A program made the translations under genes and the position numbers. The notes under the pieces were generated by a model. The model saw nothing but the letters and a program-made list of their open reading frames with translations, had not been told where the DNA came from and made no database searches. Source: Nitrosopumilaceae archaeon (GTDB lineage Archaea; Thermoproteota; Nitrososphaeria; Nitrososphaerales; Nitrosopumilaceae). Taken from it: DNA of 64,000 bases. How positions within the stretch are numbered: the stretch's first letter is position 1; each line of letters begins with the position of its first letter. Shown one piece after another: positions 215-24,609 of this stretch. The stretch covers positions 1,024,001 through 1,088,000 of the forward strand of contig OZ242365.1 in NCBI GenBank assembly GCA_965208905.1, written 5' to 3'.

Positions 215-1686
215 GGGAATTATATACAAAAGTACACAGCCTCGGCTGTACACTCATGCCTTTTCTGACGGCTCTTCTGTATTGAATGGAGCATAGAAGG
301 TGTTGGTTTGTAGCCCTCCTTATGCCCCGGCTGTCTTAGGACGACGTTCCCCGCCGCCCTATACAGGATATTCCAGGCGGCATTGACATCCGCGTGAAAC
401 ACTCTGGTACAATTAGTGCAAATGAATTTGTCGCGTGTGACACGCGACTTAGCATCCACCGTACCACACACATGGCACGTCTGGCTCGTGTATTTGGCAG
501 ATGCCCCCAACAGCGGTATGTTGTGTATCTCACACCACTGCGCAAGCTTGCGCAGGAACTCCCCGACACGGTTCTCCCGCATTGAACGGTTCATGGAGCG
601 TTTGTAATTCCCACCATGCGTGGTCATGTCCTTTACGGAGAGCGACTCGACCACGACTGCGTCCACACCATTAGTTATCTGCGCAATCGTCTGATTTATG
701 GTGTTCGCAGCTATGTTGTTGGCCTTCCTGTATAGCCGCTTTATTTGGTCATTCAATATATGCCACTTCCGGCCATGCCGTGTCTTGTGGTCACGCAAAC
801 TCTTTAGCGCGTCAATCTCCCGCAGGATTGCTCTATGGCGGGTGTTGTGTATTGTAACGTTGCCATTTGTGTCGACAGTGACGGCGAGATGCTTGCCGCC
901 CACATCAACACCCCGCATTACACCAGTATTGCGGTGCGACTCTACCGGTTCATGTATGGCAATATACAGCTCAAACATGTGGTCTGACGGCTTTGTATGC
1001 TTGTCCACCCGTTTGGTGACATCAACTATCTTGAATGAGCGCATGCCCCATGATGTATTGATGGGCTTGGCGGTCTCTACAATACCATATCCGGGGATAT
1101 GTATGGTGTGCCCACCTTTTCGTACAGGCGGTGTAACGGAACAAAGTATGATGCGGCCGTCTTTGCGGCGGTACGGCGCGTGGTCTGAGCTGTCATCTAT
1201 AACCCTTCTACATGCGACGGAGGCATCCTGTATGGCGCCCCTACCAAACGATGTGGGGCACTCGCGCAGCCATGTATGTTTGGCGCGCCACCCCGTAAGC
1301 TGTTTGTGCATGCCGTACTTTAATGCCCTCTTTGACGACCCAAAATCATATGTATGGTAGTCATAGTTCAGCGTACCGGACGTAACACCCTTCAACGTGT
1401 TCGGTAGTTTGAAGGGCTGTAGTATGTCCACTACCACCCTCTCCATGTATTCGCCGCCAAACAAATACTCTGATACGGCGCGGTTGTACACATATCTTGA
1501 CGCATGATTCGTGCGGTGCGCCCACTCTGCAAACAACACATCCATTCGTAGCGGTACCTTGACTATCCGTATCATAATGTATAATACGGTATGTTGGTAT
1601 TTAAGAGGAGTTGCTGTATGGACGCGTTCCGTGGTTCAGGTATTAACTCTCAGAATCGAGGTTGTGTACTTTTGTATATGATTCCC
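215..1686 (-). mobile_element. Non-autonomous TIR element carrying tnpB (IS1595-like ends)
   Basis: 30-bp TIRs at 215-244 (GGGAATTATATACAAAAGTACACAGCCTCG) and 1657-1686, 28/30 match; no transposase; no clean TSD. Confidence 0.8.
220..1575 (-). CDS. tnpB: RNA-guided endonuclease TnpB family protein
   Basis: RuvC-I GVDVG, RuvC-II VVESL, TSQTCHVC...CTNC zinc ribbon, RuvC-III HADVNAAWNI. Confidence 0.93.
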   Translation of the reverse strand: MIRIVKVPLRMDVLFAEWAHRTNHASRYVYNRAVSEYLFGGEYMERVVVDILQPFKLPNTLKGVTSGTLNYDYHTYDFGSSKRALKYGMHKQLTGWRAKHTWLRECPTSFGRGAIQDASVACRRVIDDSSDHAPYRRKDGRIILCSVTPPVRKGGHTIHIPGYGIVETAKPINTSWGMRSFKIVDVTKRVDKHTKPSDHMFELYIAIHEPVESHRNTGVMRGVDVGGKHLAVTVDTNGNVTIHNTRHRAILREIDALKSLRDHKTRHGRKWHILNDQIKRLYRKANNIAANTINQTIAQITNGVDAVVVESLSVKDMTTHGGNYKRSMNRSMRENRVGEFLRKLAQWCEIHNIPLLGASAKYTSQTCHVCGTVDAKSRVTRDKFICTNCTRVFHADVNAAWNILYRAAGNVVLRQPGHKEGYKPTPSMLHSIQKSRQKRHECTAEAVYFCI

Positions 1687-1782
1687 TTAATTTACGGTAA
1701 GCGCCGATAATTACACAGCTCAATAACCATACAAGCCTATTTTGATTGACCCGGATGTAAAGTTCGGAGGTCGGGGTGGCAG

Positions 1783-3204
1783 TTATCCTACGGTCCACTT
1801 GCTGGCTCCCTCATCACCGATGTGTACGCCGAGTATCCCATCTGGGCCTACGGCTATCACCGCGTATACTGTATCATCAACCCGCAGGATGTCTATGCCA
1901 AGCGCCATGTACCCTACGAGGCGCCCGACAACCTCAAGGTCCGACTCCCCCTCGTACAACCCTATATGGCCCTGTGTGTATCCCACATGGTATATGACAT
2001 CATCTATCTCTACCACCTCATGTATCACGTTGACACGCTTCACATTGTCCAGGTCTTCCCACGTTCTGGCGGGGTTCCTATCTAGGTGAATCAAATACGT
2101 CTGTATGCCATCAAAGGATGCGTCCACTAGGATGTATGTGCTGTCATCCTTGTGCGCCACCCCGTGTATGTGTTTGACACCCAGCAGATTAAAGTTGTCG
2201 GAGAGTGCTCCGGACCTTCGTATGTCATAAGGATCAGATACATCATACTGCTGTATGAGCCCCTTTGATACAGTTATCACGAGTGGCTTGCCGTCAACAT
2301 CAATTAGAACGGAATCTAGCACAGAGTTGTAGTGCGCAGTACCCGCCAGGGTGATGTTGGATGGGTCTGACAGGTCTGGCACACGAAATCCATTTGGGTA
2401 CATCTGAACGACATAAGGCTGTCCGTTCAGGGACCAGATGTCCACAGATGGCTCATCATACGAGTCCATCAGTTCCGGCTGATCCGAATCAGACATATCC
2501 AGAACATGTAGCCCGTCATCACCGGTGGATGCCACCACATATTCAGTACCGTTGATGCCCACCACCACTATATCATGAACGTGGTATCCCTGCAGGTGGA
2601 ACGACACCTCAAGTCTATTGCCACCGATATTATCAAAATTGGTTATACCCAAACGGGGGACAGTATATCCCAAGCTGTCAAAGGTCCTGTCGGGTGTCGG
2701 ATTTGCCGTGCCGTACATGAGATGACCCTCGTGGGAGCTGTGCCCCATTCCGAGCACATGGCCAAGTTCATGCGCCATCACGTACCTGATTATATCCGGG
2801 TTCGTGAGGCTGGCGCCATACACATCCGGCTCTGGTGAATCAAAGTCTATCCCGATTCGATGCCCCAGGGAACTGTCATGGTATTCCACCCCCCAAGCGT
2901 ACTCTGAATCAATCCACTCTATTAAAACATCGTGTCGGTCATCATGGCTTGGCGTGGCTATGATTCCGGGATTCACCTCAGTCCACGCGCTTATCCCGTC
3001 ACGGATGGCCTCCTTTATACTCTCCCAGTAGTCTTCGGCATAATCTGGGTACCTGTCCTGTAGCTCAGTGAATATGTCCGGGTGTATCCTGTATGTGATG
3101 ACCTGCGCATCAGCTGACTGTATGCCGTATGGGGCTGCCACCATGACTGCCACTACTGTTGCCATGCTTACCAAAGTTAGACTCTTGTCTGTCATATCCA
3201 CCAC
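1783..3204 (-). CDS. Secreted matrixin-type (M10) zinc metalloprotease with C-terminal LVIVD-like beta-propeller repeats
   Basis: Signal peptide, HELGHVLGMGH zinc motif followed by Met-turn LMY, repeats such as GLHVLDMSD and GFRVPDLSDP. Confidence 0.75.
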   Translation of the reverse strand: MVDMTDKSLTLVSMATVVAVMVAAPYGIQSADAQVITYRIHPDIFTELQDRYPDYAEDYWESIKEAIRDGISAWTEVNPGIIATPSHDDRHDVLIEWIDSEYAWGVEYHDSSLGHRIGIDFDSPEPDVYGASLTNPDIIRYVMAHELGHVLGMGHSSHEGHLMYGTANPTPDRTFDSLGYTVPRLGITNFDNIGGNRLEVSFHLQGYHVHDIVVVGINGTEYVVASTGDDGLHVLDMSDSDQPELMDSYDEPSVDIWSLNGQPYVVQMYPNGFRVPDLSDPSNITLAGTAHYNSVLDSVLIDVDGKPLVITVSKGLIQQYDVSDPYDIRRSGALSDNFNLLGVKHIHGVAHKDDSTYILVDASFDGIQTYLIHLDRNPARTWEDLDNVKRVNVIHEVVEIDDVIYHVGYTQGHIGLYEGESDLEVVGRLVGYMALGIDILRVDDTVYAVIAVGPDGILGVHIGDEGASKWTVG

Positions 3205-3756
3205 GCATCTATCTTGGACCCTACTTGCAGCAAGTGGTATGTGCTAATATGTTGGGGGGTTTGATGTGTTGCTGTCATGAGAATATTATATCCGGCACTT
3301 GGCTGAAAAGACTTGACACATTCGTCCATGTTTGGAATATATAGTCTCTATCCATATATTATTGTCTTCGTGATTGGTATGGATGGATGTCCTACTAACA
3401 AATAGTACTGCGGCAGCTAGATATACAATGGGGTGAGCCACTCTACAAGCGACTTGGTGAGCCTATATCATTACTGCTCAGGATGGCAGACAGTGGTTCT
3501 ACTCGGTTCGCTGGACACCTCACCGTTCACATATACAAGATGAGTGAGGTGTATCCATCTAGGGAGTTCCAGATGTTAAACTACAGGGCCAAGATAGGTG
3601 GCCTGCGAAGCGTCAAGCATGGACTAAAGTCGAAGGTGTGGTGTCTGTGAAGGCGCGCATCATTCGACTTTGGGATGATGCATAAGATGTCGTATCAATC
3701 GTGTTTGTGACAGAACCTAACAGGCTATATTAGCTCTAATCTGAGGTTTACACATA

Positions 3757-4416
3757 ATGAAGCTATACATCATGTTAGCCGTGGCCATCGCCGTTGCCAG
3801 TGCGCTCATAGTGTATACTGTATCCACACAGAATGATGTTTCTCCGGACATTCACACAATCTCACTTGTATCTACAATTGTGGATAACGCCTCTCCTGCG
3901 ATAGGTGGCCCTGACGCTCCCATAACACTCGTGGAGTTTGGAGACTATCAGTGCCACTTCTGTCACCAATTCTTTGTAAACACCAAAGACCGCATAATCA
4001 CAGACTATGTTGACACTGGTAAAGTGCGTATGATCTTTAAAGATTTTACCATAATTGGACCTGACTCCATACGTGCCGCTGAAGGTTCATGGTGCGCTCA
4101 GGAACAGAATCTATATTGGGAGTATCATGACATATTGTATCATAACTGGGATGGCGAGAACACTGGCTGGGCATCTGAAGCAAACCTCCACAGACTTGCC
4201 GCCGAGGTGGGCCTTGATGTGAATACATGGTCTGAGTGTCTGAACTCTGGTAGGTACTCTGATGTAATCTCATCTAGTAGTGATGATGCGCGTGAACTGG
4301 GTATTACAGGAACACCATCCTTCTTTGCAATACTGCAGAACCAGACGATTGTAAATATACACGGTGCGCAACCATACGAGCAGTTCGCCCAAGTATTCGA
4401 CTCCATGCTGCAGTAG
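3757..4416 (+). CDS. DsbA-family thiol-disulfide oxidoreductase
   Basis: N-terminal TM, EFGDYQCHFC CxxC motif, GITGTPSF cis-Pro loop. Confidence 0.9.
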   Translation: MKLYIMLAVAIAVASALIVYTVSTQNDVSPDIHTISLVSTIVDNASPAIGGPDAPITLVEFGDYQCHFCHQFFVNTKDRIITDYVDTGKVRMIFKDFTIIGPDSIRAAEGSWCAQEQNLYWEYHDILYHNWDGENTGWASEANLHRLAAEVGLDVNTWSECLNSGRYSDVISSSSDDARELGITGTPSFFAILQNQTIVNIHGAQPYEQFAQVFDSMLQ

Positions 4417-4505
4417 ACTCAGAGACTGTATGTCACATTATGTATGATATCTGATGTAAGCCACACTGCCATCACACATACTCTCTGTCATACTATGAAT
4501 GCGTT

Positions 4506-5980
4506 AGAGTTTATGCGTAATTGCACAACTTGGCAGCATTGGGTGGTCCCGGCCCGTTCTGGCCGGCACCGCCCACCCCGGTACAGCCCATCGGCTCACC
4601 GCCGACGGAATTCTGGCGTTCCGGTTTGTGCGCCCCCGACAAATGCCATTCGGCATCTGCACTACGACTCTCTAACAGCCGCATGATGTTAAGAAGTGTA
4701 ATTCTCCGACCATGCGTGAGTGTGCGGTCGGCGGCCGCCTCTTTCAGCAGCCGTGTTATGTGGTATAGTGTGGTGTTTGATGATATAGTGGTATTACACA
4801 TCAGAGCCAAAATGGTACGAAATAGTATGTTGGCACCCGCGTTGGCATCCCGTTCCCTAATTGTACGACATGTATAGCACCACATGTCGCGGGTCGGTAT
4901 TTTACCGGTATTGGTCCCAATATGTTTTAGATCTCCGCCACATTTGAGACATTTCGCGGACGTATTTCGTGGTTCGATGCTTATATGCGGCAGACCCTCG
5001 GACTCGGCTGCGTTTTTGAGTGCATTCTGTCTCTGGCCCGTATTCAGTGTGGATTTTGTTTTGCCACGGATAAATGGTGATATTGTATAGTTTTTGGTGT
5101 ACAGTCGGTGTATGCTCAATGTTTCATGCCCTATGCCGTATCCGGCATTGGCCATCTTCCGGGCTTCCACACATACATCATTATGGATGCGGTTTTTGTA
5201 CACACTCCATGCCCTGTTTGTGTATTTTGTCATAATGCGGTTATCGTTACGCCGCTTCACCTTTAGCATCTTGCTGTGTGCCTTGTTGTATTCACGTGCA
5301 TTGCGGTTGGGCCGCATAACTACAGTGCCATCAGCGAATGCATAGGTGTTGTTTTTGGCATTCATATCCACACCGGCCCAGGATATGGGCTCGCTATACG
5401 GAACGTCTTCCTTGTATGTAATGTATATCTCATTATATCTTAGTAGTACAGTCTTTGGTATTCTACCAGGCTTGGTAAGCTCATCCACTACATATGGTGG
5501 TACAGGGAAGGCCAGCCATGGCTTATCTGGACGGCCCCTACCGTATATTGGTACATGTATTGATGGTGTGCCATTCCATCGTTTTGATGTATCATCAAAT
5601 GCCAGCTCGAACCTGTCAGTCTGCGCCACAGGGTTGTGGTAGTGTGGGGCACGTACATGCACATTAACCAACTGATTCGTACGCCATGCCTTGTAGTTTC
5701 CATGCACGCTTTGTATTATATAGTCGGCGAAGCGTGAGTGGTATACGCCAGTACGGTGCACCGCCATACGATATAGTTTCTTGCCGCGCACACCCTTGCG
5801 TAATACCTTCGCAGCATGGTTGGACGCAGCCCCCACATAATGTAACAAACCACCCAAAAGATGTCCACTGTCATGTGTTACATGGATGGTGCGCATTATT
5901 GTGCCCATACACATGATGTATAGCTTATGGTATTTATATATACGGTACTGTACATCATGATTCGATTACGCATAAACTCT
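4506..5980 (-). mobile_element. Non-autonomous TIR element carrying tnpB (putative IS5-like ends)
   Basis: Perfect 16-bp TIRs AGAGTTTATGCGTAAT at 4506-4521 and 5965-5980; GTT on both flanks (possible 3-bp TSD). Confidence 0.75.
4511..5914 (-). CDS. tnpB: Divergent TnpB/Cas12f-like RNA-guided endonuclease
   Basis: AGVDMN (RuvC-I), GHETL (RuvC-II), TSAKCLKC...CYTC zinc ribbon, ERDANAGANI (RuvC-III). Confidence 0.85.
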   Translation of the reverse strand: MCMGTIMRTIHVTHDSGHLLGGLLHYVGAASNHAAKVLRKGVRGKKLYRMAVHRTGVYHSRFADYIIQSVHGNYKAWRTNQLVNVHVRAPHYHNPVAQTDRFELAFDDTSKRWNGTPSIHVPIYGRGRPDKPWLAFPVPPYVVDELTKPGRIPKTVLLRYNEIYITYKEDVPYSEPISWAGVDMNAKNNTYAFADGTVVMRPNRNAREYNKAHSKMLKVKRRNDNRIMTKYTNRAWSVYKNRIHNDVCVEARKMANAGYGIGHETLSIHRLYTKNYTISPFIRGKTKSTLNTGQRQNALKNAAESEGLPHISIEPRNTSAKCLKCGGDLKHIGTNTGKIPTRDMWCYTCRTIRERDANAGANILFRTILALMCNTTISSNTTLYHITRLLKEAAADRTLTHGRRITLLNIMRLLESRSADAEWHLSGAHKPERQNSVGGEPMGCTGVGGAGQNGPGPPNAAKLCNYA

Positions 5981-6265
5981 GTTGTATATGACATTCTGGT
6001 ATGTGCTCCTCGCAGTCTGCATGTTGCATGCGGCAAGTCTAGTGGCTGCTTGACGGCTCAGCTATACGCGAACCATTGGGAGTCGTGTATCCTACCTGTA
6101 TGTCGCACCCACATGTGAGCCGTCCTACTGGTATATCGTATAGTATGACATCCATCTCTTTAAAATGACTGTTCGTACAGTGGGCTGCACGCGTGTTTAT
6201 TCAGGTATGTAATTCCCCATTATACCCATAAAAACCATATATGTAGGCATTATAATGTCATGTAG

Positions 6266-7648
6266 ATGGCTGCTGGAATTGATGACATATCGGTCTACAT
6301 ACCAAAACTATACGTGGATACTGAAGACTTTGCTCAAGCTCGAGATGTCAATATAGACAAGATGCGCAAGGGCTTGGGCATATACCAGATGGCCATAGCT
6401 GACAACAACCAAGATCCTGCATGCCTGGCGGCTAATGCGACTTACAAAATTATGAAACGCAATGACATACATCCAAAAGATGTGGGCCGGCTCTACATAT
6501 CTACTGAATCCTCATTTGATGAATCCAAAGCCATGAACGCGTATGTGGTGGGAATGCTTGAGCAAGTGTATGGGCCTGGTACATTTGGGCACTGCGGAGG
6601 TGTCGAGACAAAGTTTGCATGTGTGAGCGGCTCTTATGCACTATATGACAATCTGAACTGGATAAGGGCCGGGGAGGCCGACTCCCAGTATGCACTAGTT
6701 GTAGTCTCTGATATTGCAAAGTATGATTTAGGTTCTAGTGGTGAGATGACACAGGGCGCCGGAGCCGTTGCGATGCTCTTGAGTGATGACCCGCATCTAC
6801 TCACCTTTGATCCCAAGGTGACTGCCACATCCATAAGTGATGAATATGACTTTTACCGTCCTTTCGGCAAGGATACCCCCATAGTCCACGGCCAATACTC
6901 CAATCTACTATACCTGCTGCAAGTCCGAAAAGCCTTGGATCTCTACAAGAAGAAGGTACTATCAACCAAACTCATAACGCCGGGCCCTGATGAATCCATA
7001 CTGGATTATATCGACTATTTGAACATGCATCTTCCGTACAGCGCCATGGGACGTAAGGCTTTGGCGTATCTGCTGCGACATGAATGGAGGCATCTCCCTC
7101 GCTGGAAGTCATTGATAGAGAAGATTGGCATGGCCGAACCTGTGGCACAGCATCCTGGTACCATCGAGACCATACTTGCCAATCCTGAGTTTATAAAAGA
7201 TGATAGCAAGTTTAACAGACTACTCATGGAGACTGATGAATTCATTGACATATATGAAAAGAAGCTGTCTAGCTCACTCATTGCATCAAAGATGATTGGC
7301 AACCTCTATACCGCCTCATTATATCTGGGACTTAGAAGTAGTCTGGAATATGAGCATCGCAAAGGTGTAGACCTGGCAGGCAAAAGAGTTGGCTTTGGCT
7401 CATACGGTAGCGGAAGTAGCGCCATGGTGTTTAGTGGCGTAATCACCGAAGAGTATGCTGATGTTGTCTCAAAGATGAATTTAGACTCTGAGATGAAGAA
7501 CCGGCGCCGTTTGACGTTGGACGAATATGAACTACTACACCGTGGGCAGATGCCTCTCACTGAATCCATACTGTCCGGCGATGGTGAATTCATACTTACC
7601 GATGTGAATAAATCAAACAGTGAGCGACAGTATGTCTTCAAATCATGA
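6266..7648 (+). CDS. Hydroxymethylglutaryl-CoA synthase
   Basis: ETKFACVSG catalytic Cys, EMTQGAGAVA, HLPY, GNLYTASLY and GSYGSG motifs. Confidence 0.93.
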   Translation: MAAGIDDISVYIPKLYVDTEDFAQARDVNIDKMRKGLGIYQMAIADNNQDPACLAANATYKIMKRNDIHPKDVGRLYISTESSFDESKAMNAYVVGMLEQVYGPGTFGHCGGVETKFACVSGSYALYDNLNWIRAGEADSQYALVVVSDIAKYDLGSSGEMTQGAGAVAMLLSDDPHLLTFDPKVTATSISDEYDFYRPFGKDTPIVHGQYSNLLYLLQVRKALDLYKKKVLSTKLITPGPDESILDYIDYLNMHLPYSAMGRKALAYLLRHEWRHLPRWKSLIEKIGMAEPVAQHPGTIETILANPEFIKDDSKFNRLLMETDEFIDIYEKKLSSSLIASKMIGNLYTASLYLGLRSSLEYEHRKGVDLAGKRVGFGSYGSGSSAMVFSGVITEEYADVVSKMNLDSEMKNRRRLTLDEYELLHRGQMPLTESILSGDGEFILTDVNKSNSERQYVFKS

Positions 7649-8160
7649 GCGACAACCCTCTCAAAGATATACTCTTTGAGCGTTTGAATACCCACAATGC
7701 AGAACGACTAATATCTACACATAACTATGCAGAATTAATAAAATATGTCATACCATATATGATGGACAAAACCCATAATGTCGTACCATACGAAGAGTCG
7801 GCAGTTGCAATATCCACAGGCATACTGCACTATATACTGACCGTCTCTGCCACGCCCAGCCAAAGACAGGTTACCTACAAAGATGTAGATGTTGATATAG
7901 TGCTGCCCGACATCCGACAACTAAACAGAGACCCTTCCTTGGCTGTTATAATACAGATATGCCCCAACTGTGATGTGGCAAGACATAGACTACACAATAC
8001 GACCACCATACAACCCATACAGAAGAACATCTGGCTGTTGACCCCCTACGACTGTTACTATCACATATTTGATGGCTCGCCATCCTTCTCTGACCTATTA
8101 TACGATATGATAAAATTCTCGCGCACCCATAATCAAAACAAACTAGGGCTATTAGGATAA
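7645..8160 (+). CDS. Hypothetical protein
   Basis: 171-aa ORF translationally coupled to both neighbours. Confidence 0.6.
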   Translation: MSDNPLKDILFERLNTHNAERLISTHNYAELIKYVIPYMMDKTHNVVPYEESAVAISTGILHYILTVSATPSQRQVTYKDVDVDIVLPDIRQLNRDPSLAVIIQICPNCDVARHRLHNTTTIQPIQKNIWLLTPYDCYYHIFDGSPSFSDLLYDMIKFSRTHNQNKLGLLG

Positions 8161-9410
8161 TGTCTTTTGTGTGGCACCCCAATACACAGATGTCTGAGTG
8201 GAAGGAGTTTGATCATATCGTCAGCGGCGATGGCATGTGGCTACAAGACTCTACAGGACATCGTATGCTAGATGCCGTATCTTCAATGTGGTGCAACGTT
8301 TGGGGACACTCTGAGACCGAACTGATAGATGCACTGTACAATCAGGCCTGTATGATACCCCACGCATCACTCTTCAACATTACACATACCCCTGCAGAGT
8401 CTTTGGCCGGGCACCTGATACAGATATGTCCTAACATGAGACATGTCTTTTATACAGATGATGGCTCGACTGCCATGGAGGCCGCATTCAAGATGGCTGT
8501 ACAATACTGGCAGAATCAGAAATCCCCCAAAAACATGCTGGCAAGTCTTTCGAATGGATATCATGGTGACACAATAGGCGCAATGTCGGTGGGATACTCG
8601 GATACTTTCTTTGGAGCATATCGCCATATGACTCCTAGATGTATACGCATTCCTACACCAAATCATGGCGTGACCAATTGGAGCGATACGTTGGATCATT
8701 TATCTGAGACTTTGGAGTCGAACAAAAACATTGCTGCTGTAGTCATGGAGAGTGGTGCGCAGACTGCCGGTGGCGTAGTGATATATCCTGAGGCATTTCA
8801 GACTGCCGTATCTCAGATATGTCACAAAAACGATACACTACTTGTGGTGGATGAAGTGGCCACCGGTCTGGGTCGTCTATCTCACATGGCCGAGTACGCT
8901 GCGCAACAATCCAATCCGGATATCGCCGTATACAGCAAGATGCTCACTGCCGGCTATATGCCTCTGGCCGCCACACTTGCAACTGACAAAATATATGATG
9001 CCTTCTTGGGGGACTACTCTGACCATTTACATCTCTTTCATGGTCATACATTCTCTGGTAACCCCTTGGGTGCTGCTGTGGCCAACCGAAATTTAGAGTT
9101 GTATGCAGAACGCCAACTGATACAACACGTGCAACAGTTATCTCGCATATTTGCTGATGGGCTAGATGTAATGTCTGATACCAAAGGAGTACTTGATGTG
9201 CGGTACAAAGGATTACTGGCAGGCATAGACATTGATATAAACTGCGATGTCTCCTCTGCCAATTATACGATATATCAGATTGGTCGTAAAAATGGTGTAT
9301 ACCTGCGAACATTGGGGAACACAATACTTGTGGTGCCACCCTTGGCCATTTCACCCGAGGAACTATCACAGATTCTCACTGGCGTCTCGGACACCATCCT
9401 CGCCCTCTGA
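8160..9410 (+). CDS. bioA: Adenosylmethionine-8-amino-7-oxononanoate aminotransferase
   Basis: VWHPNTQM, SMWCNVWGH, YHGDT, DEVATGLGR and HGHTFSGNP class-III aminotransferase/BioA motifs. Confidence 0.93.
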   Translation: MSFVWHPNTQMSEWKEFDHIVSGDGMWLQDSTGHRMLDAVSSMWCNVWGHSETELIDALYNQACMIPHASLFNITHTPAESLAGHLIQICPNMRHVFYTDDGSTAMEAAFKMAVQYWQNQKSPKNMLASLSNGYHGDTIGAMSVGYSDTFFGAYRHMTPRCIRIPTPNHGVTNWSDTLDHLSETLESNKNIAAVVMESGAQTAGGVVIYPEAFQTAVSQICHKNDTLLVVDEVATGLGRLSHMAEYAAQQSNPDIAVYSKMLTAGYMPLAATLATDKIYDAFLGDYSDHLHLFHGHTFSGNPLGAAVANRNLELYAERQLIQHVQQLSRIFADGLDVMSDTKGVLDVRYKGLLAGIDIDINCDVSSANYTIYQIGRKNGVYLRTLGNTILVVPPLAISPEELSQILTGVSDTILAL

Positions 9411-9509: not shown

Positions 9510-9593
9510 GTTACATTCTATATTCATTCAAAATATAAAAGACATATTCTACAATTTGAAAAAGTAATAAGTAACAAAGTTATTTCATACATA

Positions 9594-15203: not shown

Positions 15204-16520
15204 CTAAACTCTGCGTACTACTCCCCCGGTATCTGTTGAGCTAAACGTCTGTGTTTTTGGAATGTATATGGAGAACAGCACTAATCCATTCTGATTCGAC
15301 GTCGTTATGCTCCCTTTGTGTAGTTTTACTATGTTCTTGCAGTATGTAAGTCCTAGCCCAGTACCATCTTTCTTGGTTGTAAACAACGGATCAAACATAT
15401 GTGGAAGAACATGTGAGGGTATGCTTGGACCTGAGTTCGCAAACTCCAGTATGACAGTGCCGTTCTTGTTACCAGTCTCAACATCTTCGTCACGAATACG
15501 GACGACTATGCGCCCTTGATTGTGTCCTATGGCCTGGACAGCATTACTCAACAGGTTGTAGAATACAAATTCCATCTTTTTGTTATCGCACTCTACGTTT
15601 ATGTTCTGATCGTCGTCGGGTATGTGTAGGTCGATATTCTTGGGCAGTGTTAACATATCCACTGCGTTGTGCAATATTTCCAACAACATAACTGAGTGCA
15701 GGTTGAGTGGGGTGTTGTTTACAAAGGTCAAGATGCTTTCGATCTGGTGCGATATACGCTTGATTGACCGCTCCATTCTTGCCGTCTCTTTGTTGAGTGG
15801 TGTGTCTAGATTAGATTTTTTGATCAATTCAACTGAATTGAGCAACGACCCAAGTGGGTTCCGTATGTTGTGTGCCATGGTGGCCGAAAATTTACCAAGA
15901 ACCTCAAATCGCTCCATTTGTACAGTCTTGTCTACATATGATCGAGTGATGCGCCGTACTAGAAATGTAATGAACGTCAACACTGTAATGTTAGCGATAC
16001 CAAGAAGTATCAGAAGTAATGAATTATGTGTAGTAATATCATTAAGGTGGGTACTAAGTTGTTCGTTCATGTTGTTTGCTATTTCAATTATCTTATTACC
16101 TAGTGTGTGTACCGACTCTACGTTATCATAAGTGAGGCCATTCTTTGAATTGATCATCTCTGTCAGCACAGTTGTGTATTGATCTACTACAACCCCCATC
16201 TCGTCCAACTCCGAATGCAGTCCCTGCGGCAGAGGTAGAATATCGTTCCCCCCCATAATGCTGCTATAGAGAAGTTCGGTGTTATGCTCTAACTCTTCAA
16301 TGGCAGTCTCAACATTCATGTGCATCTCACTTTCGTGAAATAGTGTACGGTACATCTCAAGCTGTACAGTGCTGGCTAGTAGCCGGTTCTTTCCTGTAAC
16401 GTCGATCAGTTTCCCATAAGAGGAATGTTGTAACTCGATGTGTGCTACAACAAGGAAGCTCGAGATGACCAAAATGGCTTGGACAAATATGAGTGATAGA
16501 ATCTTATGCAAAGCATTCAT
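15204..16520 (-). CDS. Membrane sensor histidine kinase
   Basis: Two TMs, AHNIRNPL H-box, NLLSNA N-box, FTTKKDGTGLGL G-box. Confidence 0.92.
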   Translation of the reverse strand: MNALHKILSLIFVQAILVISSFLVVAHIELQHSSYGKLIDVTGKNRLLASTVQLEMYRTLFHESEMHMNVETAIEELEHNTELLYSSIMGGNDILPLPQGLHSELDEMGVVVDQYTTVLTEMINSKNGLTYDNVESVHTLGNKIIEIANNMNEQLSTHLNDITTHNSLLLILLGIANITVLTFITFLVRRITRSYVDKTVQMERFEVLGKFSATMAHNIRNPLGSLLNSVELIKKSNLDTPLNKETARMERSIKRISHQIESILTFVNNTPLNLHSVMLLEILHNAVDMLTLPKNIDLHIPDDDQNINVECDNKKMEFVFYNLLSNAVQAIGHNQGRIVVRIRDEDVETGNKNGTVILEFANSGPSIPSHVLPHMFDPLFTTKKDGTGLGLTYCKNIVKLHKGSITTSNQNGLVLFSIYIPKTQTFSSTDTGGVVRRV

Positions 16521-16589
16521 ACGTGCGCGTCAACCCCACCTTACTGAGTGCATGTACTCACATATACACTTTTAAATTGTATTGTATGG

Positions 16590-16671
16590 AGAGTTAGTGT
16601 CGTAACTCCTCCTGAACCAGCAAAAATTGGGCAAATTTTACGCCTAGAATTTAGGTTATGACACTAACTCT
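16590..16671. mobile_element. 82-bp MITE
   Basis: 17-bp TIR AGAGTTAGTGTC(G/A)TAAC; GTATGG duplicated at 16584-16589 and 16672-16677. Confidence 0.85.
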
Positions 16672-17571
16672 GTATGGAAATCATGTCGCCTAGGCTTAGC
16701 TAAGAGAAGGTCACAGGAATACAACAAGCTATATAGATCAGGAGAATCGACGAAGACTGTGCTGACGGACAAGTCCATACACTACATCATCCGACAACTA
16801 GAGAATGGTAGAGATATTATGGTGGTGGCAGAGGAGATGAAAGTGTCACAACAGCACATCTAGCGGCTGTGGGCCGAATATTTCAAGACTAGAACGATAC
16901 ACATTCAGGGCCGAGTGGACGGCCCAAGGGCGCCGAACCCTCTAATACCTAGGCAAAAATGGTGCTGGACACGCACCGTCACTGGCCAGACGGAGTGCAG
17001 TTGACCGTAAAGAGGCTCCGGAGGACCGGATATAATATAGGTACACTAGAGTATATCGTATATTGAAGTCCAACGATATGGTCACCTCCTCCCCGGCAAA
17101 GTCAAGGCAGCGGAAATGAGTGCGGTATGAACGCCTCTACTCAAATGCCATGTGGCATGCCGCCTGGCATGCCGCCTGGCATGTCATGAAGGATCCTCGA
17201 ATGAAAGGAATGAACCTGATCACATATCTGTATGACGCTTCGCGGTGCGTCACCGGAGCTGCCCTCTTCAGGGAGGCCAACTCGAAGAATGCAGTGATGA
17301 TGCTGAGGCAGGCCATCAGCAGGTTCGGCGTACCGGCAACCATCCTATCTGACAACGGTTCCTGTTTTGTAGGTGCAAGAGGTCGCAAAAAGCCGAAGAA
17401 TTCTTGGATGCCGACATTGTTCGAGAACGAGCTGCCGTCCCTCAATATAAGCCTGATCAACTCAAAACCATGCCGCCCGCAGACCAACGGAAAACTGGAA
17501 CGATTCCACAGGGGTATTGAAGACGAGATATGGCGCTATGGCTGCCTGGACGACTACATCGAATAATACAA

Positions 17572-18681
17572 TAGTTGGGAGCATAAATAATCCTACACTC
17601 TATTAGAAATACATAAATGATCAAAATTACTAACTAATTATATGAATAACCAAACTAATGCCCAAAAAATAAAGGCTGCCCTAAAACAGACTAAGAGTGC
17701 GACACAGCACGCCCGTATCGTAGCCGTAAACATGGTGCGCATTAAAGGATATACCATCTCTGCGGCAGCGGATGTGCTTGGTGTCGATCGTAGCACCATA
17801 TATGATTGGCTTAATGCCTACGACCACAAAGGCCTGGATGGCCTCGCCGATGGTGCGAGGCCTGGCCGTCCATCTTTCGTACCGCGCCACACATTAGAGA
17901 ACATAATTAACGGTGTCAAGCGATTTACCGCCTACGGATTTGTTAAACTGGCTGAGAAAAAGACCGGCATAAAATACAGCGAATCACAAGCGCGCCGTAT
18001 CCTTAGGTCTCTTGGCTTCACTATACGGAAGACTCCCCGGATATCCGACCGAATTCCACCAAGGAAAGATCTCGAAATCTGGCAGAAAGACACCAAAAAG
18101 GAGGCAGAAATGTTTGAAAAGGACGGTTTTACACTCGTGATGGTAGACGAAAGCCACCAAAATTTAAGTATGTTTGGCAGCGGCGCAGTCTATACACGCG
18201 GTGATGCCATACCGGTACAAACGCCACTCGGCAACCAGCGCCAGACCATATACGGTGGCATCACGCTAGATGGGCAGACATGCTATATGGCCGCTAGCAA
18301 GGCCAACGACAGGTCCTTTATCAGATATTTGAACAAGACGAAAAAACGGTTCGGCAAGGTTGCCGTAATACTGGATAATGCTGCATATCACAACTCTAGC
18401 CGCGTAAAGCGATACTTGAAAAAGAATAGTGATTTCATCAAACTAATATTTCTGCCGCCGTACTCACCATTTCTGAATCCGGCCGAATGGCTGTGGCTCA
18501 ACGGCAAGGCAAGGATACGGCGGACTTTCAAGCGACCTGCCAAGAGATATTTCCGGAGGAAAATCATGCGGATATACGAGTCGCTGGAAATAAAGTTTGA
18601 TCCGCGCAGCATTCTGTTCAGAAATTTAGACAAAATCCTACCGGTGTAAAACTGGTGTCGGGTTATTTATGCACCTAACTA
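17572..18681 (+). mobile_element. IS630-family insertion sequence
   Basis: TIRs TAGTTGGGAGCATAAATAATCCTACAC / TAGTTAGGTGCATAAATAACCCGACAC; splits the IS481 remnant. Confidence 0.88.
17642..18649 (+). CDS. IS630-family transposase
   Basis: HTH, GRP motif, VDES, LDNAAYH, LPPYSPFLNPAE. Confidence 0.93.
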   Translation: MNNQTNAQKIKAALKQTKSATQHARIVAVNMVRIKGYTISAAADVLGVDRSTIYDWLNAYDHKGLDGLADGARPGRPSFVPRHTLENIINGVKRFTAYGFVKLAEKKTGIKYSESQARRILRSLGFTIRKTPRISDRIPPRKDLEIWQKDTKKEAEMFEKDGFTLVMVDESHQNLSMFGSGAVYTRGDAIPVQTPLGNQRQTIYGGITLDGQTCYMAASKANDRSFIRYLNKTKKRFGKVAVILDNAAYHNSSRVKRYLKKNSDFIKLIFLPPYSPFLNPAEWLWLNGKARIRRTFKRPAKRYFRRKIMRIYESLEIKFDPRSILFRNLDKILPV

Positions 18682-18857
18682 AATACCGCCAGACTGCACT
18701 GGGCGCTGGACATAGACAACTATGAAACATCCATGATGGTGTTCTGCAACAAGACGACCATTAACTAGACACGGAAGCAGAATTCCAAGTGGATGGAGGC
18801 GGACATCAATGAGTGACAGCTACGACGTAGCGCGACATGATTTCTATACAATACATG

Positions 18858-19558
18858 TACCTGAGCATATACATAAATTATTATGCTTGAAAAAATCATC
18901 TTCCGATATTATCACTGGTCAGAAGGGGATAAATGATTACCCTCATGGTGCTCTCATGACCGGCTCCCAAATAGTCATTAACTACTTAAACCGTCCGAGC
19001 TAACCTCACCGTCCGCCTCGTGATATATATATTTCAACACTCTCTTAAGAAGGTACATCCTCAGTAACCGTTTAACCTCCCCACAAATGAGTTCCTCCCG
19101 CAAGGCTGGATGGCGGCCCGAGACGAATCACGATGCCGCTAGACGCCCACTACATCCAATATGTGACAGAAGAAGGATGTTGATGGGATGGTACGCAACG
19201 GAATGCCCTGCGTTTGGACATGGTGAATTCACCCGTTGGTGTAGAAGAACCCGTTTTATGGTCCTTATAAGGGGGTTAAACGGTTACCATACTCAGCCCC
19301 TCTTGGTTTTCAGGTGTGATGTCTGACTGAATTTCGTTGTTCTACGCCTACAAAAGGAGAGGGTTGGGCATGTACCTTAAGTAGTGTCTCTTTTTTTGCC
19401 TACTTATCACCGCCGTTACACATGCTTGCATGCATGTTTAGTACTCACCCTAATTGATATTTGATATTTGTTATCCTGTTGCGGTATGCCTTTGCAGTCA
19501 TTTTACGGTTCTAGTGAATTCGTACTGATTTAATAATTCCCTCCTATCTTGGTCTTGT
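18858..19558. repeat. ~370-bp non-coding repeat, copy A (interrupted by nested MITEs at 19052-19376)
   Basis: Reverse complement matches 23450-23820 closely on both sides of the insertion. Confidence 0.9.
19052..19376. mobile_element. Nested MITE stack (three TIR pairs)
   Basis: Outer GGTACAT..ATGTACC; middle GTAACCGTTTAACC at 19064-19287 with CATCCTCA/CATACTCA TSD; inner (A/G)GTTC..GAACC at 19090-19251. Confidence 0.75.
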
Positions 19559-19629
19559 TGTAGTATATGAAAATTATGGGAATTATATAGTTTGTAACAA
19601 ACGAATATAAGGCAGAATCCCCCCCCCGT

Positions 19630-20994
19630 ATGGCAGGCATTAAGAATAGAACCATATTCACAGGGGATAATCTAGAGATATTACGTGGCTTTCCAGACGA
19701 ATTTGTAGATTTGATATATCTAGACCCACCGTTTAACTCCAAACATAACTATGCCGCTCCAATAGGTTCAAAGGCAGCCGGGGCCGCATTCAAGGATACG
19801 TGGAATCTAAGTGATATTGACTTGGCATGGTGGGGCGAGATCCAATGTACGAGTCCAACTGTATACAAGGTGCTTGAGATGGCCCGTGCAACGGCGGGAA
19901 AGTCAGCAATGTCGTATTTGATTTACATGGCAATACGCATATTGGAGTTACATAGAGTTTGCAAATCAACAGGTTCATGTTATATTCACTGTGATTCGAC
20001 TATGTCCCACTATTTGAAGATGGTACTTGATGCAATATTTGGCATTAAGAATTTTCGCAATGAGATACTCTGGAAACGGTTTAGTGCGCATAATGATGGC
20101 CGAAGGTATGGCAAGGTAACTGATACTCTATTATTCTATGCTAAGACATGTACACATACATGGAATAGAGTTTATACTCCATACTCAGATGAATATATAC
20201 AATCAAGTTACCGCGATGAGGATGAACTGGGCCGTTACACGCATAGAGCCTTAACAGCAGAAGGGCTATCGGGGGGAGGGTATGAGTATGAATTTCATGG
20301 ACATCATCGTATTTGGAAGAGATCTTTGGAATCCATGCAGCGATTAGAAAGTGAAGGAAAAATACACTTTCCGAAAAAGAGTGGAGGTGTGCCTAGATAC
20401 AAGATATATCTTAAAGATGCTCTAGGCATACCTTTACAAAATATTTGGACAGACATACCCATTGTAGGCGGTAATGAAAAACTACATTACCCAACTCAAA
20501 AACCCCTCGCCCTACTGGAACGTATTATCAAAGCATCAAGTAATGAGGGGGATATTGTATTGGATCCATTTTGTGGATGTGCTACAGCTTTGAGCGCGGC
20601 AGAGAAGTTAGATCGGCAATGGATAGGTATAGACATATCTACAAAAGCGTATGATTTGCTCAAAGACCGTCTTGTCAGAGAGGCGGGCCTTGACAAGTAC
20701 ACTAAAGGGGCGGGTATACTAATACACCGCACCGACATTCCAATACGCAAGGGCAGGCGGTCTAAAGACATCAAAGACACTCTATACGGTAAACAGAGGG
20801 GGCGGTGCAATCTCTGCCCTCACTGGTTTGAGTACAGACAAATGGACGTGGATCATATCATACCCAAGTCCAAGGGTGGGGCAAATGATGATGCAAACTT
20901 ACAGTTGTTATGCAACAACTGTAACAAGATCAAGGGTAATCGCACTATGGCAGAGGCAAGGGCAATACTCAAAGAAAGAGGGCTTATCGAGTAA
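19630..20994 (+). CDS. N6/N4 DNA methyltransferase fused to a C-terminal HNH endonuclease domain
   Basis: IYLDPPFNS (motif IV), YPTQKP, DPFCGCAT (motif I); then CNLC..DVDHIIPKSKGG..NLQLLCNNCNKIK HNH. Confidence 0.92.
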   Translation: MAGIKNRTIFTGDNLEILRGFPDEFVDLIYLDPPFNSKHNYAAPIGSKAAGAAFKDTWNLSDIDLAWWGEIQCTSPTVYKVLEMARATAGKSAMSYLIYMAIRILELHRVCKSTGSCYIHCDSTMSHYLKMVLDAIFGIKNFRNEILWKRFSAHNDGRRYGKVTDTLLFYAKTCTHTWNRVYTPYSDEYIQSSYRDEDELGRYTHRALTAEGLSGGGYEYEFHGHHRIWKRSLESMQRLESEGKIHFPKKSGGVPRYKIYLKDALGIPLQNIWTDIPIVGGNEKLHYPTQKPLALLERIIKASSNEGDIVLDPFCGCATALSAAEKLDRQWIGIDISTKAYDLLKDRLVREAGLDKYTKGAGILIHRTDIPIRKGRRSKDIKDTLYGKQRGRCNLCPHWFEYRQMDVDHIIPKSKGGANDDANLQLLCNNCNKIKGNRTMAEARAILKERGLIE

Positions 20995-21251
20995 TGGGGT
21001 TAAGGGAGTTGGGGGTATTAATTGGCTTAATTGTTGTAATGGTCATAGTGGCTATTTTAACTGCACTATGTGAATTTATGTCATCACAATCAAATTTAGA
21101 AGGTCTGTGGGCCGAGACTCATGAACGAAATTTATCAATTATCTGTTTTGTTGCTAACATGTTTAAGAATGACACAGCGGTGGAACAATCGCAAAATATT
21201 ATCACCATACAAAGGTATGATAACACACAAACCCACAATCAGTCTTGCTAA
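20994..21251 (+). CDS. Small hypothetical membrane protein (IS1595 passenger)
   Basis: Coupled to the MTase stop codon; N-terminal TM; overlaps an antisense ORF. Confidence 0.4.
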   Translation: MGLRELGVLIGLIVVMVIVAILTALCEFMSSQSNLEGLWAETHERNLSIICFVANMFKNDTAVEQSQNIITIQRYDNTQTHNQSC

Positions 21252-21422
21252 ATCATCTTGCCACCACTCTATTTGTGACGGCCCGCCAATCTGAACTCCC
21301 AAGATAGGAATTGTTAGGAATAAACCTAAGGCCAATCCAAAAAATATTACTGGTTTGCGTATGGATGTTGATCCCATAATTAAGTTAAAGTTAAAGATCA
21401 AATAAGTGTTACTGTTATGCAA
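21135..21422 (-). CDS. Small hypothetical two-TM protein (IS1595 passenger)
   Basis: Follows the transposase stop; two hydrophobic segments. Confidence 0.45.
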   Translation of the reverse strand: MHNSNTYLIFNFNLIMGSTSIRKPVIFFGLALGLFLTIPILGVQIGGPSQIEWWQDDLARLIVGLCVIIPLYGDNILRLFHRCVILKHVSNKTDN

Positions 21423-22377
21423 TCAACGCTTCATAAGTAAGCCTCTTTCCCATCATACCTCTAACTAGACTTACCATCATGTCTATTGTGTCTAGATTCC
21501 GAATGTTTAGCCGTCCTGCAAACTCGTTAACATACCTGTGTAGATGCTTTGCCGATATGTGATGAAACGTGCCGTAATAGCCACGCTTTAACAAAGCCCA
21601 GAAAGACTCTATGCCGTTGGTATGCGCCATGCCGTTTACATATTGACTAACGGAATGGTTAACCGTTTCATGATTAGGTAGGTTTTGGTATGCCCTACTC
21701 TCGTCCGTATAATGGGTTGCTCCCGTCTTGGTGTTTTGTTCAATAAATTTACCAAGACGGGCAGCGGTTGTATCCGGTACGGGTTCGGCTCTGATGTTAC
21801 CTGTCTTTCTATCTTTGATTCCAACCACGGCGGTTTTGTTGGCGCCGCCTTGACTGTGTGGGGTTTTCTTGTCTGCATGCTTGTTGGATTCCTTGCCTCC
21901 GAAATATGCCTCGTCAATTTCGACTGGGCCTTCCATCTTGTCTGTACCTGCCAGTGTATGCCATGATTCACGTAACCTTTGTACCATGAACCATGCCGAC
22001 TTTTGGGTTATGCCCAAATCCCTATGCAGTTTCATTGAACTAATACCCTTAACGTTGGTCATGAACTGATATGTTGCAATGGCCCATTGTTGATATGTCA
22101 TATGGGATTGTTCCATGATTGTTCCTACCTTGACACTAAACCGCTTGTGGCAATTCCCCACACCTGCACAGTAATACGGCATCTTTTTGTACTTTGTTTT
22201 TTTGATGTTGGTATTACCACAAAACGGGCAGCATGGCTTATCGTCCCAAATTGTACGTTCAAACCACTTTTCGGCGGCATCATCATCAGGAAATATCTTG
22301 AATAGTTTTGCAAGCGTTATTCCTTCACGGTGACTTTTACCGGGTGCTTGTTGGCTCATAGTATACCTTAGAAACAT
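21415..22377 (-). CDS. IS1595-family transposase
   Basis: N-terminal CPFC zinc ribbon, VEIDEAYFGG, YTDE, VNHS, HTNGIESFW; likely start 22359. Confidence 0.95.
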   Translation of the reverse strand: MFLRYTMSQQAPGKSHREGITLAKLFKIFPDDDAAEKWFERTIWDDKPCCPFCGNTNIKKTKYKKMPYYCAGVGNCHKRFSVKVGTIMEQSHMTYQQWAIATYQFMTNVKGISSMKLHRDLGITQKSAWFMVQRLRESWHTLAGTDKMEGPVEIDEAYFGGKESNKHADKKTPHSQGGANKTAVVGIKDRKTGNIRAEPVPDTTAARLGKFIEQNTKTGATHYTDESRAYQNLPNHETVNHSVSQYVNGMAHTNGIESFWALLKRGYYGTFHHISAKHLHRYVNEFAGRLNIRNLDTIDMMVSLVRGMMGKRLTYEALIA

Positions 22378-23449
22378 GGATTATATAAAGATTGTTACAA
22401 AGTATATAATTCCCAAAATTATGTCCGCTAGTCATTTGACTTCGCCTCCATCCAGTTGGGGCCCTTTGCCTTGGTCTTCTCGGCCGCTTTCTTGGCCGAG
22501 AACGCCTTGAGCGAAGTCTCGTAGTTGGCTATGTCCAGCGAAAAGTGGAGTCGCCTCTTGTTGTAATGCTGGATATACTCGGGCAGGCTCTCGTAGTGAC
22601 CTATCTCTTCCTCGATGGTTCTGTGGAACCGCTCAAGCTTCCCGTTCATCTGGGGGTGGCATGGTCTTGAGTTCATCAACTCGATACCCCTACCCAAGAG
22701 CTCCTCCTCGAACGCGGTGGACTTCCAGGATCCTTTGGGGTTGCCCTTGCGCATGCCCACAAAGCAAGATCTATTGTCCGACAGGATGGTAGCCGGCGTT
22801 CCGAACCGCCTAATTGTTTACTGGAGCGCCACCACGGCGTTCTCCGAGGTAGCCTAAGTGAACCGGCTCGCCCCGGTCACGCATCTTGAGGCATCGTCCA
22901 GGAATGTGATGAGACAAAGCCCACTCATACGCGAACTCTTCATGACGTGCCAGTTGGTGTACCACATGGAGTTGGAGTGCTTACGCTCGTATCGCACCCA
23001 CTTATGCTTTCGTGACTTTGCTTCGGATGGTGCGACTCGCTCACTCTCCTTCATAATCAGGATACTCGCTGGTAGATTATATTATGACCCGCTCTGCGCA
23101 GGCTTATTGCCGTGCGTACCACGCCTACCTCCTCCAACTGGTAGGCGTCCAGTACCAACTGTACCTCATCCGGCGACGGCGATAGCAGGGCGGGCCTGCC
23201 CGGAGTGCGCGGAATAGGCGCGGATCCGGTCTTGCGGAACTTGGCGTACGGCCTCCGAATGTGCCTTGATGTCACTCCGAGCTCGGCGGCCACCACAGAA
23301 GATCTCCTGCCTTTCTCAAGTTGGTTTATGGCGTACCGGATGGACTTTGCCGTAAGACGCTTTGCCATATTTTTTCTTGATCGATACAGCGTATAATGCT
23401 CCTTTATGGTGCGCTTGATCTTAGTCGGACCTAATTTCCGTACAATAGA

Positions 23450-23820
23450 ACAAGGTCAGGATAGGGGAGAATTATTAAATCAGTACGAATTCACTAGAAC
23501 CGTAAAATGACTGCAAAGGCATACCGCAACAGGATAACAAATATCAAATATCAATTAGGGTGAGTACTAAACATGCATGCAAGCGTGTGTAACGGAGGTA
23601 ATTAATGGGCAAAAAAGAGACACTACTTTTTAAGAGAGTGTTGGAATATATAGATCACGAGGCAAACGGTGAGGTTAGCTCGGACGGTTTAAGTCGTTAA
23701 TGACTATTTGGGAGCCGGTCATGAGAGCACCATGAGTGTAATCATTTATCCCCTTCTGACCAGTGATAATATTGGAAAATGATTTTTTCAAGCATAATAA
23801 TTTATGTATATGCTCAGGTA
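23450..23820. repeat. ~370-bp non-coding repeat, copy B (inverted, uninterrupted)
   Basis: Inverted match to 18858-19051 plus 19377-19558. Confidence 0.9.
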
Positions 23821-24609
23821 GGTTCCTCCTGCAAGGACTAGTGGTGATCTAAATGACTTAGATTCGGACCAAAATTCGCCTCAAACCGGACATGCGCAGG
23901 TCGTCATAATTCATTTTTGGCCGGTTTTTACCAAGTCCCACTCAGATGGGGCATATGCGGAGGCAAAAATCCATACTGTATCATGGTGTCGGGCATTCGC
24001 GGTACATTACGCAGCGGATACGGCGTTCTGTATGAGCGTCAGCCACTTGTCTGTACCCTGTATGTCTATGCCGGCAGAGCCCCACTTGTCCCCCACGCAC
24101 GGCGGCTTAATGGTCTTGGCATACTCGTCTGCCACACTGGAATAGTGCTCCAGGGTTCTGGTTATGCTGTCCACGTGTACCTCCACTCCCAGATGTTTGA
24201 GCGTCACCTGAATGTTGGGCACCATCTGGGTTGCGGCAGCATATACCAGTCAGAAATGTAATCCGTGTGGCTACACCCACAAGGACAACCGGGATGGTAG
24301 AAAATTCTTGTGTAAACGGCGTGGCCATACACGTCATGCTGACTGTAATGCGGGCGCCAACATAGAGGATGCGGGACTAAAAAAGTTGGGTCCAGAGGCC
24401 ATGCATGGTCAACTAAACTTACGAAACTTGTCGGACCATGCCGGCAACACCCATGTTAAGGAGTATCTGGGCGTGAGGGTTCTTGCATCAACTCCCCTGA
24501 GAAACGTCAAGCACAGACTGGGAAACGAGATGCTCTACGCACCGTCGCTCTCTGGCGTGACGTGTAATGTATTGTAGATGCGGGAACCCCCGTGTTTGCA
24601 GTAGAAACC
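23821..24609. mobile_element. Decayed IS6-like TIR element with DDE-transposase and tnpB remnants
   Basis: Ends GGTTCCTCCTGCAA / GGTTTCTACTGCAA (12/14); minus-strand fragment ...KPPCVGDKW...; plus-strand tnpB C-terminus. Confidence 0.6.
24212..24577 (+). pseudogene. tnpB: tnpB C-terminal remnant
   Basis: AAYTSQKCNPCG..FLCKRRG..HADCNAGANI; RuvC-I/II absent and last Zn Cys lost. Confidence 0.85.

Follow-up and report, generated by a model that had tools for sequence, protein, structure and literature searches.

How do tnpB genes spread in a genome in which no TnpA transposase is found? This question is raised by a stretch of 64,000 nucleotides (hereafter the window) of a Nitrosopumilaceae archaeon, contig OZ242365.1 of assembly GCA_965208905.1, positions 1,024,001 to 1,088,000 of the forward strand, which lies within a single-contig genome of 2.21 Mb that is 99.6% complete. 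The original prediction, made from the letters of this window, had described four tnpB-derived loci that lack a Y1 or serine tnpA and are each bracketed by terminal inverted repeats (TIRs), and had proposed that TnpB has been re-housed here in elements moved in trans by DDE transposases. As support for this proposal it had named multiple copies with identical TIR-defined boundaries, family-typical target site duplications (TSDs), empty alleles and DDE elements with the same ends, and as evidence to the contrary ordinary IS605 or IS607 ends on other copies. The outcome of these tests supports the proposal. We observed defined element boundaries, target duplications, empty sites, ends shared with DDE-type elements and intact nuclease motifs, together with the absence of TnpA. 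It is very probable, in our view, that the tnpB loci are small non-autonomous DNA transposons, each with one tnpB and a presumed guide-RNA scaffold between TIRs, and that they are moved by a staggered-cut DDE-type reaction in trans and not by a Y1 or serine TnpA.

Two of the loci in the window are complete elements. The first, E1 (positions 215 to 1686, minus strand, 1472 bp), is a tnpB-only element of the family that we call A, with IS1595-type ends and with GGGAATT...AATTCCC boundaries that are the same as in the other family-A copies. Its TIR arms, 31 nt long and 94% complementary, lie at 215-245 on the 3' side of tnpB (the right end) and at 1656-1686 on the 5' side (the left end), and tnpB stops within the right arm, which also includes the 3' arm of a hairpin specific to this end. 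The gene itself (220-1575, minus strand) encodes 451 aa with Pfam matches to OrfB_IS605 and Cas12f1-like_TNB, and its RuvC D/E/D residues and zinc finger are intact in an alignment to PDB 8iaz_A as well as in an alignment of eight TnpB families. Since E1 encodes tnpB alone and no DDE_Tnp_IS1595 transposase, it is non-autonomous. The second element, E2 (4506-5980, minus strand, 1475 bp), is a tnpB-only element of family C with the TIR AGAGTTTATGCGTAAT at 4506-4521 and 5965-5980 and with a 3-bp target duplication, GTT, whose left copy is at 4503-4505 and whose right copy is at 5981-5983. Its tnpB (4511-5914, minus strand) encodes 467 aa, matches the TNB domain in Pfam and keeps the catalytic motifs in the family alignment, and its stop codon, like that of E1, falls within the TIR.

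The third locus is a relic. A family-E element of 789 bp with an internal deletion (23821-24609, plus strand) has GGTTCC-type ends at 23821 and 24609 and no TSD. The open frame at 24212-24577 on the plus strand matches the TNB domain in Pfam, and by tblastn the remnant of the 3' part of a family-E tnpB lies at 24224-24577 on the same strand, the region 24224-24622 aligning at 75% identity with residues 351-484 of an intact TnpB of that family. Thus three of the four predicted loci, at 220-1575, 4511-5914 and near 24224-24577, are tnpB-derived and TIR-bracketed as had been claimed. The fourth, a supposed tnpB tail at 19090-19251, did not hold up. Pfam detected no domain in it, and a tblastn comparison with the TnpB families of the genome produced nothing better than E 0.3-0.8; all that it has in common with the TnpB elements is a GGTTCC..GCAAGG motif. 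A comparison of filled and empty versions, using an inverted paralogous copy at 23432-23820, places it inside an insertion of about 330 bp (19048-19391) that resembles a miniature inverted-repeat transposable element (MITE) and contains the GGTTCC-like motif at 19090. Judged by its sequence, the tail is a TIR-like motif inside a MITE, and a tnpB origin for it is unsupported.

The window samples a much larger population of such genes. A profile search of the genome gave 75 matches to the TnpB TNB domain, and clustering of 74 parsed loci yielded about nine families, namely A (E1 type) with 15 full copies, B with 7, C (E2 type) with 3 full copies plus fragments, D with 12, E with 9, F with 13, G with 3 and H with 2, plus one pair of 346-aa genes. 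Proteins of different families share only 12-36% identity in pairwise comparison, and all eight aligned families retain the RuvC D/E/D residues and the zinc finger. Among other members of the genus, relatives of family A were found in 8 of 9 genomes; 31 genomes of other genera gave none. Two further observations concern this population. At genome positions 924780-927837 (locus L022) a family-E element adjoins a 1536-bp element with identical GGTTCC ends, which is probably a decayed tnpB of a different family because its reading frame is in pieces without a Pfam match. In other species, the stretch of about 186 nt that adjoins the right end of E2 (window 4505-4690) has dozens of short stand-alone copies at 75-84% identity, whereas the tnpB body of E2 is 64-69% identical in genomes of the genus; by their sequence, these stand-alone copies look like guide-RNA or MITE derivatives.

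What defines these genes as parts of transposons is the structure of their ends. Inverted repeats of 16-61 nt, truly terminal, bound the copies in every TnpB family examined, and identical TIR-defined boundaries recur from copy to copy; all 15 full copies of family A, for example, terminate at the same GGG...CCC. Perfect 8-bp TSDs flank 11 of the 15 family-A copies, and one more copy matches at 7 of 8 positions. In family B, all four copies of subfamily B1 have perfect 8-bp TSDs, and the three copies of subfamily B2 match at 8, 7 and 6 of 8 positions, respectively. Family E has four perfect 8-bp duplications among eight copies and two that match at 7 of 8 positions, and family F has eight among twelve together with one copy that shows a 9-bp duplication. 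Both copies of family H are flanked by perfect 9-bp duplications, all three copies of family C by perfect 3-bp duplications, and the several subfamilies of family D by duplications of about 8 bp next to TIRs of 22-61 nt. The duplications are typical of the partner family: 8 bp is also the length found at the four IS1595 copies of this genome, and 3 bp is the length for the IS5-like type. The B1 and B2 proteins are 93% identical, yet their ends differ, and on sequence grounds ends have been exchanged between near-identical tnpB genes.

Orthologous sites without the insertion confirm these boundaries. In the close relative G005, the flanks are 92-98% identical and the insertions are absent: the E2 site holds a single GTT, the site of the family-A copy at genome position 864610 holds a single TAGTTTTA, and the site of the family-F copy at 891631 holds a single 9-mer. 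The E2 insertion is also absent from public contigs of one study (runs X6 and X7), which join window position 4502 to 5981 with three letters that fit either side. The empty alleles named as a test were therefore found in both sources, and in G005 for three families (C, A and F). The E1 site is empty in G005 too, but about 115 bp are replaced there, and the lack of a clean duplication around E1 is consistent with this difference. A search for paralogous empty sites within the genome gave one weak match of 69% identity, which was not used.

These results bear on the most conventional explanation, that the loci are ordinary IS200/IS605 elements of the IS1341 type, moved single-stranded by a Y1 TnpA, with inverted repeats that are merely subterminal hairpins. 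The TnpB proteins are indeed typical (Pfam OrfB_IS605 plus TNB), and the left end is preceded, as in IS605 elements, by a short conserved motif. Elements of the IS1341 group are described as lacking TIRs and duplications and as depending on Y1 TnpA (PMC13565253, PMC4810608); the elements described here resemble them in having a lone tnpB, a presumed omegaRNA at its 3' end and the short upstream motif, and differ from them in having TIRs and TSDs and in the absence of a Y1 TnpA. Direct duplications of 8, 9 or 3 bp that are confirmed at orthologous empty sites, and repeats that are truly terminal, do not fit with such elements. Neither does the absence of the enzyme: a profile search of the genome gave no match to Y1_Tnp and none to Resolvase, in agreement with the claim of the original prediction that neither a Y1 nor a serine tnpA is present. 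As a control, the Y1_Tnp search detected this family in 6 of 14 genomes; Y1_Tnp was found in none of 4 genomes of the genus sampled and, across the taxonomic family, in only 4 of 81. No IS605- or IS607-type ends were found on any TnpB copy of the genome. We therefore consider this explanation highly improbable.

Which transposase, then, moves the elements? For part of the families the ends themselves suggest a partner. The window contains an autonomous IS1595-family element of 2837 bp (19578-22414) with 29-nt TIR arms that start GGGAATTATATA and with a perfect 8-bp TSD, AAAATTAT, at 19570-19577 and 22415-22422. Its transposase (21415-22377, minus strand, 320 aa) shows DDE_Tnp_IS1595 and a zinc ribbon (Pfam, E 1.1e-40), and its passenger gene (19630-20994, plus strand) encodes an N6/N4 DNA methylase fused to an HNH nuclease in the Pfam search. 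The genome contains four IS1595 copies, each with GGGAATTATA ends and a perfect 8-bp TSD that is rich in AT. The terminal 12-mer GGGAATTATATA is common to these copies and to families A, B2 and G, so that the TIR type of E1 is the one of the IS1595 element in the window, as had been predicted; B1 has a variant of the 12-mer. The match between E1 and the autonomous IS1595 element is limited to these terminal 12 nt. In two other species of the genus, the same IS1595-type 12-mer bounds TnpBs that are 56% and 28% identical to family A. The IS1595 family is reported (ISfinder; Siguier et al. 2009) to make 8-bp AT-rich duplications, to have ends that start with GG and to carry passenger genes in some cases. 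The elements described here agree with this in their 8-bp duplications (11 of 15 copies in A, 4 of 4 in B1) and in the match of their ends, and the IS1595 element of the window does carry a passenger gene; they differ from it in that E1-type elements lack the IS1595 transposase and have only the terminal 12 nt in common with the autonomous copies. A split version of the methylase-HNH passenger is present in a second IS1595 copy (genome 1770047-1772736), and a stand-alone homologue of 482 aa is present elsewhere (1371232-1372680).

A second type of end leads to a different transposase. The TIR of family C occurs 34 times in the genome, against about one occurrence expected by chance by our own estimate, and it flanks the pair of 346-aa TnpB genes as well as a 1585-bp element that contains the only DDE_Tnp_4 locus of the genome. 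E2 is thus similar to the IS5 family in its 3-bp duplication and in its use of the ends of a DDE_Tnp_4 element, and an intact transposase of this kind is absent from the genome. Accordingly, of the DDE elements with the same ends that the original prediction had looked for, those of the IS1595 and IS5-like types exist, the latter in broken form, and those with GGTTCC, D-type or H-type ends were not found. In sum, families A (with E1), B and G use the ends of IS1595 elements of the same genome and make 8-bp duplications, and family C (with E2) uses the ends of the IS5/Harbinger-like DDE_Tnp_4 element and makes 3-bp duplications. Families E (with the remnant in the window), F, D and H have inverted ends of other kinds and duplications of 8-9 bp, and the search gave no partner for them.

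The GGTTCC ends of families E and F had been called IS6-like. These ends may resemble those of IS6 elements, and an 8-bp duplication is compatible with that family. However, the genome has 14 matches to DDE_Tnp_IS240, none of which has GGTTCC ends, and the label is unverified. The end itself recurs in the genus, where 8 of 9 other genomes have it. As a separate observation, 12-14 diverged genes encode proteins of 370-500 aa with a DDE_Tnp_IS240 domain (for example at genome 1257326-1258822 and 1100943-1102328), the longest also with a SWIM zinc finger; judging from the genes themselves they may be old or domesticated transposases, because no terminal repeats were detected around them.

Several findings weigh against the explanation of trans-mobilized DDE-type transposons. 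Three of the 15 family-A copies lack a TSD, including E1 in the window (5 of 8 positions match), as do 2 of 8 copies in family E and 3 of 12 in family F. The DDE_Tnp_4 (IS5-like) partner is represented by one broken copy with an open frame of 152 aa. A search for a transposase with GGTTCC, D-type or H-type ends, which covered the flanks of all multi-copy DDE genes, a second IS1595-like gene and repeated open reading frames of no known kind, found none in the genome. The copies without duplications could be taken to mean that tnpB inserted once in a pre-existing MITE and that the copies arose by segmental duplication. This is hardly conceivable, since flanks and duplications differ from copy to copy, clean empty sites exist in G005 and in the public contigs, and several unrelated TnpB families share the same architecture. 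The missing partners could be taken to mean that families E, F, D and H are autonomous and that TnpB, an RNase-H-fold nuclease, itself performs or directs integration. There are about 36 full copies of these four families with no transposase found to have their ends, and the catalytic residues are intact in the TnpB families aligned. Nevertheless, no TnpB is known to transpose DNA, and TnpB is dispensable in IS608 and ISDra2 according to a 2026 review (PMC13565253). The partners of E, F, D and H may also be lost, diverged or unrecognized, and families A, B, C and G clearly take their ends from DDE elements. We regard autonomy of these families as very unlikely.

Transposons of this kind have been described before. 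Altae-Tran et al. (2023 PNAS; PMC10691335) report in their main text six DDE-associated TnpB branches, DDE-1 to DDE-6, all with inverted terminal repeats, and solo TnpBs that share ends with transposase-bearing elements, for which mobilization in trans is proposed; they also describe an omegaRNA adapter that takes in the transposon end, and IS630 is the only family that the main text names. The 2026 review lists ISL2, IS630 and IS1031 as DDE partners and states that such pairings are rare in prokaryotes and of unclear benefit (PMC13565253). IS1595 is absent from the main texts of both papers, and at the level of titles and abstracts we found nothing relevant on TnpB with IS1595 or on TnpB in thaumarchaea or sponge symbionts. 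As in the DDE-associated branches of PMC10691335, tnpB lies here between inverted terminal repeats with its 3' end less than 250 bp from the transposon end, and the proteins possess the RuvC D/E/D motif as well as a zinc finger; as for the solo TnpBs in the main text of that paper, families A, B2 and G share ends with IS1595 and family C with a broken DDE_Tnp_4 element, and for E, F, D and H no such partner was found. Two features differ from the branches as that text presents them: all tnpB families examined in this genome are of the TIR kind, and variable 8-9-mer duplications occur next to a one-sided motif. The basic architecture is therefore not new, having been published in outline (PMC10691335), and this genome is an unusually clear case of it.

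The eukaryotic parallel drawn in the original prediction concerns Fanzor1, a homologue of TnpB that several unrelated families of TIR/TSD transposons carry as cargo. The likeness to the elements studied here is one of architecture only, and Fanzor1 is eukaryotic or viral, unlike the archaeal host here. Bao and Jurka (2013) are said to have described Fanzor1 in eukaryotic DDE transposons. In Fanzor1, according to the review, the fixed 5' TSD contributes to the transposon-adjacent motif (TAM), whereas the 3' TSD belongs to the scaffold (PMC13565253). The duplication in the archaeal elements is variable, and would therefore have to belong to the guide, unlike the TSDs of Fanzor1.

This brings us to the sequences next to the insertions. 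Reading in the direction of tnpB, we compared the bases directly before the left duplication with the mirror positions past the right duplication. In family F, T at -2 and A at -1 are each present at 14 of 15 left ends, as compared with 6 of 13 and 5 of 13 at the mirror positions; the sole exception is the copy with the 9-bp TSD, and all 15 duplications open with C or T. In family A, G at -1 is present at 11 of 12 left ends versus 5 of 18 mirror positions (p = 0.0008), preceded by A at -4 and T at -3, and an A-like family of another species (G006) has the G in 5 of 6 copies. Family E has T at -2 in 8 of 9 left ends versus 2 of 11 mirror positions (p = 0.005). Such a family-specific motif 5' of a variable duplication, on the tnpB-upstream side only and at the position of a TAM, may be new. 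If the guide starts past the right end, as in known TnpB systems, it would consist of the duplication and the flank, and the motif would stand at the TAM position of the empty site; we infer from this geometry that the motif is the TAM of that site. The omegaRNA would then end in the right-end TIR, the guide would be the duplicated target with its flank, and TnpB would cut the unoccupied or restored site that bears the family-specific motif 5' of the duplicated bases, which would favour retention or homing of the element. In this scheme the variable 8-9-bp duplication would supply the first guide bases and the TAM of each family would lie just outside it (about WTA for F, TTG for E, ATNG for A and TAC for C). 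Only TAM-adjacent insertions would be kept or copied, so that TnpB and not the transposase would set where surviving copies sit, with E, F, D and H also relying on a yet unrecognized transposase. To this extended model, in which TnpB would serve a DDE-type transposon through a geometry that the publications consulted do not describe, we give close to an even chance.

Some observations argue against this extended model. In family E, G at -1 is not significantly enriched (6 of 9 versus 4 of 11 mirror positions, p = 0.37). Derivatives that lack tnpB also adjoin the motif (3 of 3 with F-type and 1 of 1 with E-type left ends; genome 748201, 999539, 1116779 and 539995), and therefore the choice of the site could be that of the transposase. 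Support for an omegaRNA, or for the TIR built into the guide scaffold that the original prediction had proposed, was not obtained from Rfam, which gave no match in window positions 1-26000 at E up to 1. The sole RNA run, a metatranscriptome (X1), gave short contigs that cover both tnpB genes and their neighbours in part; they show neither ends nor strand and may reflect DNA carry-over, so nothing is concluded from them on the omegaRNA. For the 3'-terminal 260 nt of families A, E and F, RNAalifold returned plausible folds and no covariation signal, because the copies are too alike, and per-window conservation rises just slightly toward the 3' end.

The alternative is that these are trans-mobilized DDE-type transposons in which TnpB is mere cargo, and that the one-sided motif reflects target choice by the transposase or promoter context and no TAM. 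The derivatives without tnpB agree with it, and so does the fact that part of the family-A motif (T-W-A-A) lies within the AT-rich duplication, IS1595 copies likewise duplicating AT-rich sites. What it explains less readily is that the motif is one-sided although both TIRs are nearly identical in families A and F, and that the motif varies between families that share an end type: F (WTA) and E (TTG) differ at -1 (p = 1e-4), and G at -1 is present in 13 of 15 copies of A versus 0 of 7 of B (p = 2e-4). In addition, given a guide that starts past the right end, the motif stands where a TAM is required. Mere cargo is in our judgement a real possibility, towards which we do not lean.

The benefit of TnpB to a cut-and-paste (DDE) transposon is an open question, for which this genome offers a compact natural test bed. 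Its TnpB families, about nine in number, encode nucleases that are predicted to be active; they use at least three end types, and for two of these a partner transposase can be identified. A sister species provides clean empty sites, and the one-sided motif predicts a TAM for each family. The partnership with IS1595, the TIR/TSD frames around all tnpB families examined in a genome without TnpA, the TAM-like motif next to a variable duplication and the exchange of ends between B1 and B2 are the points that we consider noteworthy, and small nucleases with possibly new TAMs could be of interest for genome editing.

Other mobile elements add to this load. The genome has a 1247-bp IS3-type element in 13 near-full copies, 12 of them with identical ends, an rve-integrase element in 17-23 copies, IS630 in about 15 copies and IS110 in 3 copies; an IS630 transposase is also present in the window by Pfam. 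A sequence of about 389 bp occurs twice in the window, in inverted orientation, at 18858-19576 and 23432-23820, around the IS1595 element and integrase remnants, and its left copy is broken by the MITE of about 330 bp, which has AAGGTACAT ends. An additional solo end of the GGTTCT/GGTTCC type (GGTTCTTCCCGCAAGGATGGGTG) lies at window positions 28986-29060. Finally, at window 3426-3718, beside a DsbA-like gene, 291 nt are swapped for 235 other letters in the contigs of runs X6 and X7, which is a strain difference.

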